A stretch of 64,000 nucleotides of DNA from an uncultured delta proteobacterium (GCA_963708295.1 CAVPSJ010000012.1:128001-192000); one strand, 5' to 3'. Positions 3,128-59,763 are shown, counted from the first letter of the stretch. The notes: generated from the letters alone by a model not told the origin. A program made the numbers and translations.

Positions 3128-4761
3128 CATCAACCGGAGCGGCGGAGAGCATTCGTCCAAGGACCAGTTTTTATCAAGACCACGGCCGATATCGCGGAAT
3201 CCTTTCATGGGTTCTCACCTCAGACCACAAAAGAATCGGCCTTCTTTACTTTATTTTTGTCATCGCCTTCTTTTTTAGTGGAGTGGTCCTGGGATTCTTC
3301 ATGCGCCTGGAGATGATTGCCCCCGGAGGGGCCATCATGAAACCCCGGACATACAATTCTCTTTTTACGTTGCACGGGATCATCATGATCTTTCTGGTCG
3401 TCATCCCTGCGATTCCGACCATTTTTGGGAATTTTTTTCTTCCGATTCAAATCGGGGCCAGAGATGTTGCCTTCCCGAGAATCAATCTTTTATCCTGGTG
3501 GCTCTATATTTCCGGGGCAGCGATTGTCGCCCTCTCCGTCTTCACCGGCGACGGACCTCCTGATACAGGGTGGACATTCTATGCGCCGTACAGCCTAAGG
3601 ACCACGGTCAATGTCCCCCTTGCGGTTTCTGGTGTCTTTGTTTTGGGCATGTCCTCGATTTTGACGGGTATCAACCTCGTAACAACCACCCACAGACTGA
3701 GGGCTCCCGGAATGACCTGGAAGCGTCTCCCTCTCTTTGTGTGGGCGATTTACGCGACGTCATGGGTTCAAATTCTTGCCACTCCGGTGATCGGGATTAC
3801 CATGGTACTGATTTTCCTCGAGCGATTCTTTGGAGTGGGGGTATTTGACCCGGCCAAGGGAGGCGATCCCATCCTTTACCAGCATATGTTCTGGATCTAC
3901 TCCCATCCAGCCACTTACATTATGATCCTTCCGGCCATGGGAATCGTCTCGGATGTGGTCCCGGTGTTTGCCAGGAAAAAGATTTTTGGATATATGGCAA
4001 TCGCTCTCTCGGGGATAGCGATCGCCGCCGTGGGATCGCTCGTCTGGGGCCATCATATGTTTGTCAGCGGGCAGAGTGATTTTGCCAACCTCCTCTTCTC
4101 CCTTCTCACTTTCTTGGTGGCCGTTCCCAGTGCGATCAAAGTCTTCAATTGGGTCGCTACTCTCCATAAAGGCTCCATCGTCCTTGAACCCCCTCTCCTG
4201 TATTGTCTCTCCTTCATCTTTCTCTTTTCGATTGGTGGACTGACAGGCTTGATCCAGGGGGCCCTGGCTCCGAATGTCCACCTCCACGATACTTATTGGA
4301 TCCCGGCCCATTTTCATTACATCATCTTCGGCGGGATGGGATTCGGTCTCTTTGCAGCTTTTCACTACTGGTTCCCCAAGATGTTCGGCCGGATGTATAA
4401 CCGAAAAACAGCAAGAATGGCATGGGTCATCATGTTCGTCGGATTTAACATCTTCTATTTCTCCATGCTCCTTCTGGGCTGGCAGGGGATGCCGCGGAGA
4501 TATTACGACTATCTCCCTCAATTCCGGACCCTCCATCTGACAGCGACCTTCGGTTCCTGGATTCTCATCGCTGGGCTGATTGTCATGTTTGCCAATCTTT
4601 TCCGTGGACTCTTTAAGGGTGAAAAGGCAGAAGACAACCCCTGGGGCGCAGCGACGCTCGAATGGCAAATTCCCTCCCCGCCCCCAACAGAGAACTTTGA
4701 AAAAATTCCGGTCATCCAACACGGCCCCTATGATTTTAAGGAGTTTTCTAGAAATGGATGA
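3124..4761 (+). CDS. ctaD: Cytochrome c oxidase subunit I, A2-type heme-copper oxygen reductase
   Basis: TSDHKRIG, LHG (low-spin heme His), GWTFYAP, FWIYSHPATY (YS motif and cross-link Tyr), WGHHMF, AHFHY, GMPRRY. Confidence 0.97.
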   Translation: MTSTGAAESIRPRTSFYQDHGRYRGILSWVLTSDHKRIGLLYFIFVIAFFFSGVVLGFFMRLEMIAPGGAIMKPRTYNSLFTLHGIIMIFLVVIPAIPTIFGNFFLPIQIGARDVAFPRINLLSWWLYISGAAIVALSVFTGDGPPDTGWTFYAPYSLRTTVNVPLAVSGVFVLGMSSILTGINLVTTTHRLRAPGMTWKRLPLFVWAIYATSWVQILATPVIGITMVLIFLERFFGVGVFDPAKGGDPILYQHMFWIYSHPATYIMILPAMGIVSDVVPVFARKKIFGYMAIALSGIAIAAVGSLVWGHHMFVSGQSDFANLLFSLLTFLVAVPSAIKVFNWVATLHKGSIVLEPPLLYCLSFIFLFSIGGLTGLIQGALAPNVHLHDTYWIPAHFHYIIFGGMGFGLFAAFHYWFPKMFGRMYNRKTARMAWVIMFVGFNIFYFSMLLLGWQGMPRRYYDYLPQFRTLHLTATFGSWILIAGLIVMFANLFRGLFKGEKAEDNPWGAATLEWQIPSPPPTENFEKIPVIQHGPYDFKEFSRNG

Positions 4762-58373: not shown

Positions 58374-58632
58374 AAACCCTCTCAGAAAAACAACAGGTCG
58401 ACAGTTTGGATTACTTTTAGATCTTATTGGGCGGGAAGTCAATAATAAAATTGCGGAATGCGCGCGGAATCTCTCTCTTTGTCGAGGAACAACCAATGGA
58501 ACAAATTGGCAATCCTAAAAAGATAATTTTCACAATTAGTTTTTGGGATTGACAAACCTTGTGCTCGTGGTACATTTGAACCAAATCTTCTGGCTTATAG
58601 AGCGGGGAAAGAGAAGGGCTCGAAAGGGGGGC

Positions 58633-59763
58633 ATGATGGCGACGGACATTTATGAAAGATTGGCTGAACATCTCGATAATCTGCCCGGAGGTTTCCCACG
58701 GACTGAAAGTGGCGTGGAAATGCGAATTCTACGGCGGCTCTTTACCCCTGAAGACGCCAAGCTTGCGGTCCACCTGACACTGATCCCTGAGGAACCAAGA
58801 GTGGTTGCTCGGCGGGCCAGGATCCCGGTCGGGGAGGCTTCCCAACGATTGGAGGGGATGGTCAAGGCCGGCCTGATCATCGGGGTCTATCCGAAGAACA
58901 AATCACCTCTGTACATGGCCGAGCAGTTCCTCGTCGGCTTCTGGGAAAGCCAGGTGAATCGACTGAGTCGAGAGCTGATCGAAGAGTTCGAAGAGTACCT
59001 GCCGTTTTTCACCGAACAAAACATCGGGCCGGGAGTCCCCCAGTTGAGAACGATCCCCGTGGGGAAGAGCATCAGCACGCAAACCGAGGTCATGCTCTAT
59101 GAGCGGGCAGAGGAGCTGGTGCGGACCCACAAGACATTTGCCGTGGCCAATTGTATTTGCCGGCAGGAGATGCGCATCATGGGCAAAGGCTGTAAGAAGC
59201 CCGAAGAGAGCTGCCTGAGTATGGGAATGGCCGCCAAACTCGTGGTGCGCACGGGCAGGGGCAGGCCCATCGACAGGGAGGAGGCCCTGGCGATCCTTCG
59301 GCGTGCCGAGGAAGTCGGGCTCGTCCTGCAACCCTCCAACTCTAAGAAGGCCCCTTTTATCTGAACGTGCTGCGGCTGCTGCTGTGGCGTGCTCCGCAGC
59401 ATTAAACGCTATCCGAATCCGGCCAGTCTCGTGTCTACCCCTTTTGTGGCGAGCCTCGCGACCGATACGTGCAAAGGCTGTGGAGCCTGTGTCAAGCGCT
59501 GCCAGATGGAAGCCCTTTCTGTAGACCATAAGAAAGCGGCCCTGGATTCGAATCGATGCATCGGTTGCGGTTTGTGTGTCAGCACGTGCCCTACCGGCTC
59601 GCTTTCTCTCATACGCAAGCCCAGAGCGAAACAGCCCTATGTTCCCGGGGATATCGTGGAAACCCATATCAAGCTCGGGAAGGCTCGAGGCAAGCTGGGT
59701 GTCGGCAAGAGGATAGGGATGAAGGTCAGGTCGAAGCTGGACCGGTTGCTAGCCTCTAAATAG
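58633..59763 (+). CDS. 4Fe-4S ferredoxin-domain protein with in-frame TGA (59362-59364), candidate selenoprotein
   Basis: The two track ORFs are in the same frame. Readthrough gives CICRQ..C..C...PFI-U-TCCGCCCG, followed by two CxxCxxCxxxC motifs. Confidence 0.8.
59367..59402 (+). promoter_or_regulatory. Candidate bacterial SECIS hairpin
   Basis: GTGCTGCGG pairs with CCGCAGCAT; upper stem closes a UGUG loop (59383-59386) 18 nt after the UGA. Confidence 0.6.

Follow-up and report, generated by a model that had tools for sequence, protein, structure and literature searches.

The window analysed here is a stretch of 64,000 nucleotides (nt) from an uncultured delta proteobacterium (GCA_963708295.1 CAVPSJ010000012.1:128001-192000). 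On its plus strand an open reading frame (ORF) at 58543..59364 terminates in a TGA at positions 59362-59364, and a second ORF (59389..59763) lies in the same frame. That nothing but this TGA parts the two ORFs had been pointed out in an initial annotation and is evident from both the sequence and the ORF list. We consider it very probable that the locus represents one genuine selenocysteine (Sec)-encoding gene with a 376-residue product rather than two ORFs. Translation from the ATG at 58633 with TGA read as U yielded a single product of this length carrying U244 in KKAPFI-U-TCCGCCCGVLRS, the joined frame 58633-59763 around U reading PFI-U-TCCGCCCG. The product was stored with C substituted for U and will be referred to as P0001. 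Full-length homologues with cysteine (Cys) at this position, which are 375-376 amino acids (aa) long, span 100% of it. The two features are the following:

58633..59763, plus strand: predicted selenoprotein coding sequence (CDS), 376 residues and a TAG stop, with the ATG start at the same place as the starts of the homologues
59362..59364, plus strand: in-frame TGA, predicted Sec codon U244, assigned from the Cys column in homologues and from the recurrence of the TGA

The TGA at a conserved cysteine column

Among 5.8 billion proteins searched, 6071 matched. In the best 120 of these (69-81% identity, ~375 aa) Cys was found at the TGA column in 120/120 within the motif C-[T/A/M]-C-C-x-C-C-C, and the same Cys was invariant (75/75) in a 75-member alignment reaching from 81% down to 30% identity. 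Orthologues with an identity of 68% or more were detected at 12 places by a six-frame search of the 55 genomes of the order. Four of them carried one TGA, these being the window itself and a locus in each of three further species of the genus (87, 78, and 75% identity). At the order-level loci with the motif, the column was occupied by TGA in 4 and by TGC or TGT in 27. A further 153 loci came from scanning metagenome contigs and one genome of each species. In the resulting tally of loci L021-L224, TGA was present at the column in 37 loci, including the window locus (L021), while TGC occurred 98 times and TGT 45 times, with 143 motif matches for TGC and TGT together. A single locus had TAG at the column. 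The other matches in the tally (one TGA, one TAG, and four other codons) were all spurious and off-frame, and 24 loci without the motif were partial or unrelated ferredoxin matches.

The 37 TGA loci cover a range of 64-99% identity, contain no other in-frame stop in their motif contexts and reduce to 27 distinct 66-nt downstream sequences; L152, L154, and L158, being identical downstream to L033, L037, and L038, were left out as independent sequences. Homologues with TGA at the same column, for which the initial annotation had proposed to search, were thereby obtained from the three other species of the genus and from 30 further metagenome or genome loci. The recurrence of the TGA at one column excludes both a sequencing error and a private nonsense mutation. 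The check at the level of reads was confined to Logan contigs from relatives, no run containing half of the sampled words. Among the differences listed (40 of 192) none falls on 59362-59364, and synonymous differences are listed nearby at 59367 and 59385. One DNA contig (X2 record 15) and two contigs of a metatranscriptome run (X20 records 19 and 20) span the site with over 31 nt to either side. As these contigs derive from relatives and the list of differences is partial, they are no more than compatible with the TGA.

Six weak paralogue matches were also flagged as containing one or two TGA, which turned out to be ordinary terminal stops outside the tblastn alignments. The initial annotation had further given ICNCCxCCC as the norm of the family. 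This holds for two Cys paralogues in the genome of the window (L022, G000:C14:100635-101735, and L023, G000:C20:82591-83658; 30-32% identity), the motif of which is C-N-C-C-G-C-C-C (CNCCGCCC), but not for the orthologues, which read I-C-T-C-C-G-C-C-C. One relative (G051) possesses 8 matches at E <= 1e-40. A metagenome contig with 58% identity to the 376-residue product (L123:3470-3514) carries TAG (3512-3514) at the Cys/Sec column and a second in-frame TAG (3470-3472) 14 codons upstream, where the window has Val; the locus may be a pseudogene or faultily assembled, or TAG may be read differently in its organism.

With the TGA as a true stop, the locus would be either a split gene, coding for a 243-residue N-terminal protein and, from GTG 59389, a 124-residue ferredoxin, or a pseudogene in decay. 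Public gene calls agree with such a stop: when the N-terminal 243 residues were searched, 58 of the best 120 clusters had a length of 234-243 aa, their last residue being the one before the column. TGA is also the commonest ordinary stop in the window. However, a split would lose six conserved Cys of the motif, the Sec column included, and the eight codons from the TGA to the next candidate start (T-C-C-G-C-C-C-G, up to GTG 59389) are retained despite synonymous changes. A true stop is also at odds with the 37 loci described above, which share the TGA over a wide range of identity without any further in-frame stop, and it leaves the frozen synonymous sites over the downstream hairpin, described below, unexplained. 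The ratio of nonsynonymous to synonymous substitutions (dN/dS) of nine Sec forms against the window was 0.08-0.31 over 130 downstream codons and 0.05-0.22 over 240 upstream codons. The codons 3′ of the TGA are thus under purifying selection, and such values are not expected for a pseudogene. We regard a true stop, in either version, as very improbable, and recoding of the TGA within one gene as the reading that the data favour.

The stem-loop downstream of the TGA and proposed Sec insertion

Bacterial decoding of UGA as Sec depends on a selenocysteine insertion sequence (SECIS) element. A candidate lies directly 3′ of the codon, where two alternative hairpins can form:

59367..59402, plus strand: SECIS-like element within the CDS, assigned from the fold, the frozen sites, and the SECIS criteria of PMC13188914
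59367-59402, plus strand: hairpin B, the one described in the initial annotation, loop UGUG at 59383-59386
59380-59401, plus strand: hairpin A, the alternative, 8 base pairs (bp), loop CGUGCU

When the 69 nt from the TGA onward are folded, the minimum-free-energy (MFE) structure (-25.1 kcal/mol) has a lower stem of 9 bp, followed by an internal loop, an upper stem, and, beginning 18 nt past the UGA, a loop UGUG. It is identical with the hairpin that the initial annotation had described. Both hairpins use one 3′ arm, CCGCAGCA (59394-59401). Counting nt from the first base of the TGA, the 5′ arm of A extends from +19 to +26, with its CGUGCU loop 23 nt past the UGA, and that of B from +6/+7 to +14 plus the upper stem, with the loop UG(U/C)G 18 nt past the UGA. 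In the window their energies are -12.3 kcal/mol (A) and -20.7 kcal/mol (B). Over 18 distinct 48-nt Sec-form sequences A was paired in 96.5% and B in 92.5% of the cells, and B was the more stable hairpin in 13/18 and A in 5/18. The SECIS-like hairpin of the initial annotation can form in all 18 sequences. According to PMC13188914 (section 5 and Fig. 2 legend), bacterial SECIS elements have a loop of 3-9 nt with G in loop positions 1-2, an upper stem of 4-16 bp, a distance of 16-37 nt from the UGA, and an MFE <= -7.5 kcal/mol; checked by hand, both A and B lie within these limits. No Rfam family matched the window at gathering level, nor the region 59300-59480 at E <= 10; for bacterial SECIS elements such a match is not to be expected.

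Stronger evidence for the element was obtained by comparing Sec and Cys forms. Across 30 distinct Sec forms, codons +6 to +11 (TGC TGC GGC GTG CTC CGC) show an entropy of 0 at their third positions, except for codon +7, where the TGT of the window accounts for 0.21, whereas the corresponding values for 52 distinct Cys orthologues are 0.62-1.8 bits. Codons +1 to +5 and +12 onward are variable in both sets alike. Sites that are frozen in Sec forms and free in Cys forms argue for an RNA element under selection. The frozen block comprises nt +16 to +36, and its 3′ portion (+33 to +36) opens the arm CCGCAG(Y)A (+33 to +40), which can pair with either of two UGCUGCGG copies. At the corresponding codons Sec forms have CTC CGC AGY, and close Cys forms have CTT CGC GGT, CTC CGG GGT, CTT CGA TCT, or CTT AAA ACT; the 3′ arm is therefore lost in the latter, even where the protein keeps L-R-S. 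Within 59362-59402 of the window, UGC UGC GG occurs twice among the repeated Cys codons, so that the single 3′ arm has a choice of two 5′ arms. As most of the SECIS stem comes from the poly-Cys motif itself, protein motif and RNA signal overlap unusually tightly.

The genome of the window contains the genes for Sec synthesis and insertion, the presence of which the initial annotation had suggested to check. The genes selB (353 bits) and selA (625 bits), tRNA-Sec (81 bits), and two copies of selD (381 and 375 bits) were all detected above cut-offs. Each selD (L010, G000:C17:66608-67531, and L011, G000:C4:371872-372792) has one in-frame TGA, which suggests that the two selenophosphate synthetases are selenoproteins as well. 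Of the other Sec-form genomes, three were tested, and selB and selA were found throughout (3/3). Frame conservation alone would also fit a read-through of the UGA without selenium, in which a near-cognate tRNA inserts Cys or Trp or UGA is reassigned, and no evidence points specifically to such a process. On the other hand, TGA ends 21/38 long stop-to-stop frames in the window, so that the code is not globally reassigned, and the Sec machinery of the genome is complete. In addition, the codon is placed exactly on a Cys column, as in Sec/Cys pairs, and is followed by a conserved stem-loop at SECIS distance. Selenium-free read-through is thus hardly credible, and decoding as Sec accounts better for these observations.

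In the mechanism that we propose, UGA 59362-59364 would be read as selenocysteine by SelB with Sec-tRNA(Sec), and SelB would be recruited by the stem-loop inside the codons C-C-G-C-C-C-G-V-L-R-S just after the UGA. As shown by the comparison of homologues, the UGA is recoded at an essential Cys position in the presence of a selected downstream RNA element, and SelB-dependent insertion of Sec is what we infer from this strong comparative evidence. With high confidence we assign the gene to the ordinary, standard type of bacterial recoding.

The distribution of Sec and Cys was examined on a quick, unrooted FastTree phylogeny of 142 distinct family members, which gives no direction of change. The 26 Sec rows fell into three places, a 19-row clade with the window, a 6-row clade nested in Cys forms, and L110 alone. 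At least 3 changes between the Sec and Cys states are required on the tree, compared to a mean of 24 in shuffles. All three Sec groups have the same frozen arm, and at this arm the nearest Cys forms deviate by one or two substitutions. With such a pattern, an older Sec state with later losses fits at least as well as repeated gains. Sec forms are restricted to a sub-clade of Thermodesulfobacteriota (Syntrophales-like) orthologues, with at least 3 exchanges with Cys. Repeated Sec/Cys exchange in one genus-level clade would provide a compact case for the birth and decay of a SECIS element inside a coding motif.

Several points weigh against the interpretation as a selenoprotein. The fold of the window by itself is unremarkable (z = -1.5; 16/200 shuffles were at least as stable), so that the hairpin of a single sequence is no proof and the comparative data carry the case. 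Covariation was absent, with 0 pairs altered on both sides for A and B in the 18 sequences and 500/500 shuffles scoring as high. The variation in the hairpins consisted of one-sided changes, mostly preserving wobble pairs, and the support for the RNA is consequently conservation rather than covariation. A and B cannot be told apart, and the shared arm is weakened in 2/18 sequences, by one change from U-A to U-G in L073, which is still paired, and by two mismatched pairs in A in L074. As most Sec forms are closely related, conservation appears higher than it is, an effect tempered by the occurrence of the same element in the six-row clade and in L110 (64% identity). Furthermore, selA and selB were found in 2/2 Cys-form genomes of the genus tested as well (5/5 overall), so their presence does not discriminate. 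Flanking ORFs were not conserved across 17 related loci, and the neighbourhood accordingly offers no functional clue. Finally, the incorporation of selenium is deduced from comparison, and the role of Sec and the kind of centre discussed below are putative only.

Domain structure and putative role of Sec

The 376-residue product consists of three domains, of which the middle one contains U244:

58645..59028, plus strand: winged-helix-like N-terminal domain, approximately residues 5-132, assigned from the AlphaFold (AF2) model and VIA-align
59035..59448, plus strand: Cys-rich alpha/beta middle domain, residues 135-272, assigned from alignments A1 and A2
59449..59610, plus strand: 2x[4Fe-4S] ferredoxin domain, residues 273-326, assigned from Pfam Fer4, Fer4_21, and Fer4_7 above cut-offs

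The AF2 model of the whole protein has a mean predicted local distance difference test score (pLDDT) of 93.5 and a predicted template modelling score (pTM) of 0.90; with VIA-align its best Z was 6.6. Residues 5-132 aligned with winged-helix proteins of the ArsR/MarR/TrmB/TFE type at Z 5.1-6.3, a range that is common for the tool. Among the 75 family members, Pfam TrmB was found in 7 and MarR in 2, and the only helix-turn-helix (HTH) match of P0001 itself was HTH_20 with 13.6 bits versus a cut-off of 27. The C-terminal domain is the one part (residues 273-326) recognised by Pfam and NCBIfam, with Fer4 at 39 versus a gathering score of 21.1 bits and Fer4_21 at 37.9 versus 35 bits. Its Cys residues 280, 283, 286, 290, 309, 312, 315, and 319 form two CxxCxxCxxxC motifs. 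Sequence and fold matches to this domain in the PDB were the ferredoxin domains of HdrA, MvhB, RnfB, and HydB. The sequence search against solved structures gave matches to the ferredoxin domain only, Foldseek gave ferredoxin and winged-helix matches only, one of them at E <= 0.001, and for residues 1-272 of the natural Cys homologue P0002 the ESM Atlas returned only clusters that were unnamed or termed 'ferredoxin family'.

The middle domain holds C174, C176, C187, C194, U244, C246, C247, C249, C250, and C251. In the 75-member alignment C174, C176, C246, and the eight ferredoxin Cys were invariant, and C187, C194, C247, C250, and C251 were present in at least 90%. Sec opens the U/C-x-C-C-x-C-C-C motif next to a second invariant C-x-C, and the four invariant residues of the middle domain form two C-x-C pairs, C174/C176 and U244/C246. 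The model predicts an alternating strand-helix fold with the Cys at strand ends. Modelled alone (pLDDT 79), the domain reached a best Z of 3.2, with 0/48,161 chains at Z 5; this lack of a match among solved folds does not prove a new fold. No Pfam family covers the domain in P0001 or in the 75 members. A CCG domain of the HdrB/HdrD type (PF02754) was found neither in the Pfam matches of P0001 at E <= 0.1 nor among the families listed (25 of 34) for the 75 members; in the comparison of folds the best Z was the 3.2 given above.

Sec putatively stands in place of a cluster-ligating Cys. The middle domain may hold a metal or iron-sulfur centre that receives electrons from the ferredoxin domain, and Sec could be a ligand of this centre or a reactive residue beside it, tuning the redox chemistry as it does in other redox selenoproteins. 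For this specific role, ligand or reactive residue at a ten-Cys/Sec centre fed by the ferredoxin domain, we rate the chances as about even. A further-reaching idea, which we put forward as speculative and rather unlikely, is that the middle domain contains a metal centre of an undescribed kind (e.g., selenium-ligated or non-cubane Fe-S) fed by the ferredoxin, with Sec marking the reactive atom of the centre, and that the winged helix makes the protein a selenium-containing redox sensor or transcription factor, or that the protein represents a new class of reductase.

The family comprises 664 representatives at E <= 1e-30 and, according to the record titles, ranges over Thermodesulfobacteriota, Chloroflexota, Aminicenantes, Bacteroidota, Cloacimonadota, and Asgard archaea. 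In the window the long neighbouring ORFs are located on the opposite strand, so the gene looks monocistronic and stands alone. One further feature was found upstream of it, and a tRNA search of the window was negative:

58549..58576, plus strand: promoter-like site TTGACA-16 nt-TACATT, the second hexamer being preceded by TG, 10/12 in a consensus scan; a consensus match only, 57 nt upstream of the start codon

At four loci of Cys orthologues (L088, L089, L153, and L155) a convergent ORF of ~346-356 aa, starting with MPKILIADDDPVL, lies 3′ of the gene and, judged by eye, has the look of a response-regulator receiver; in L089, L153, and L155 an ORF of 631-653 aa is present upstream as well. This arrangement is not shared by the Sec-form loci examined.

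Novelty and comparison with known selenoproteins

The gene probably belongs to an iron-sulfur family with Sec that is not yet on the lists. In its available part, a 2026 review (PMC13188914) gives in Table 1 119 prokaryotic selenoprotein families or subfamilies, none with the present architecture or motif, one entry, discussed below, being a possible exception; to this extent it agrees with the initial annotation, which did not recall the family from the standard lists. The family is likewise undescribed in the parts available of the Haft & Gwadz 2022 preprint, PMC2398784, PMC5029168, PMC12013277, PMC13326102, and PMC9312934; the family table of BSepDB, which was outside the scope, might list it. 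No dedicated model of NCBIfam release 20 was present among the best 25 of the 76 families matched by P0001.

It might be argued that the family is already listed under the PRK07118-type Fe-S entry and that the present finding is a rediscovery, which would affect its novelty only and is compatible with a true selenoprotein. The listed Fe-S entry is given as PRK07118 with representative ABC78902.1 in the available part of a 2022 review (PMC9312934). The sequence U-T-C-C formally fits the pattern UxxC, and models of the PRK07118 type are among the better NCBIfam matches of P0001 (NF005503, 2.7e-10; NF005504, 4.4e-10). ABC78902.1 presumably derives from Syntrophus aciditrophicus and would thus come from a related lineage. 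Nevertheless, P0001 scores far below the cut-offs of these models (NF005503, 40/252 bits; NF005504, 39.4/437 bits; NF005506, 28.8/388 bits), and the matches to all three are confined to the ferredoxin domain (residues 277-333). Moreover, in 68 genomes of the class NF005503 and NF005504 match a different, RnfB-like gene of ~275-460 codons; such matches occurred only in families f2 and f3, none in the family of the window (f1), and none had a TGA. The listed entry, with representatives WP_258165141.1 and ABC78902.1, is set apart at the level of model scores. If the domain label in the 2026 review means a match above cut-off, as we assumed, the listed family is RnfB-like and separate from the present one. 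We therefore judge it unlikely that the family has been listed before, and treat it as a candidate new one.

In public databases the genes are systematically cut at the TGA. The 58 short clusters mentioned above are named hypothetical protein, Lrp-family regulator, or RnfB. Short gene calls ending before the Sec column amount to at least 58 clusters (90% identity) within P0272-P0333, which indicates that the Sec form occurs commonly in metagenomes of wetlands, soils, and sediments and that annotation systematically shortens it. If the assignment is correct, one more selenoprotein family would be added to the ~119 catalogued in prokaryotes, and Sec would mark a functionally critical residue of a widespread, uncharacterised iron-sulfur family of anaerobes. 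Few natural features point to redox-active or metal-binding sites as well as Sec/Cys pairs do, and the pair described here could serve as an entry point for biochemistry.

Several known selenoproteins resemble the present one in part. The listed PRK07118-type protein has in common with it a predicted Sec in a Cys motif, writable as UxxC, of a protein bearing a 4Fe-4S ferredoxin, and differs in that the winged-helix and ten-Cys domains found here are not covered by the RnfB-like model (40 versus 252 bits with the hidden Markov model). In HdrA and VhuD/MvhD, the selenoproteins of methanogens and Deltaproteobacteria with a CxxU motif, Sec serves as an Fe-S ligand. As in the present protein, Sec replaces Cys in an iron-sulfur protein of electron transfer, and by both fold and sequence the C-terminal domain is best matched by the ferredoxin domain of HdrA. 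However, the protein described here has no flavin domain and no homology to them beyond the ferredoxin domain, its motif is U-x-C-C-x-C-C-C and not CxxU, and it is encoded by a lone gene rather than in an hdr/mvh operon. Both HdrA and VhuD/MvhD are listed as selenoproteins in Table 1 of PMC13188914.

The similarity to the Sec forms (CxU) of the catalytic subunit of ferredoxin:thioredoxin reductase is one of pattern only, C-x-C-type motifs being comparable to C174-x-C176 and U244-x-C246. The redox Cys of that enzyme adjoin a [4Fe-4S] cluster. No similarity of sequence or fold to P0001 was found, and size and domain make-up differ. Sec forms of the reductase, with Sec in place of a redox-active Cys, are described in PMC2398784.

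The Sec form of HgcB, the ferredoxin of mercury methylation (NF040864, GVGU), is likewise contained in Table 1 of PMC13188914 and matched P0001 with 29.9 bits over the ferredoxin domain, against a cut-off of 99 bits. In HgcB Sec is located in the C-terminal tail, whereas in the present protein it is located in a separate upstream domain, and the gene has no hgcA neighbour. What the two proteins share is a 2x[4Fe-4S] ferredoxin combined with an additional Cys or Sec that, in HgcB, is thought to handle metal.

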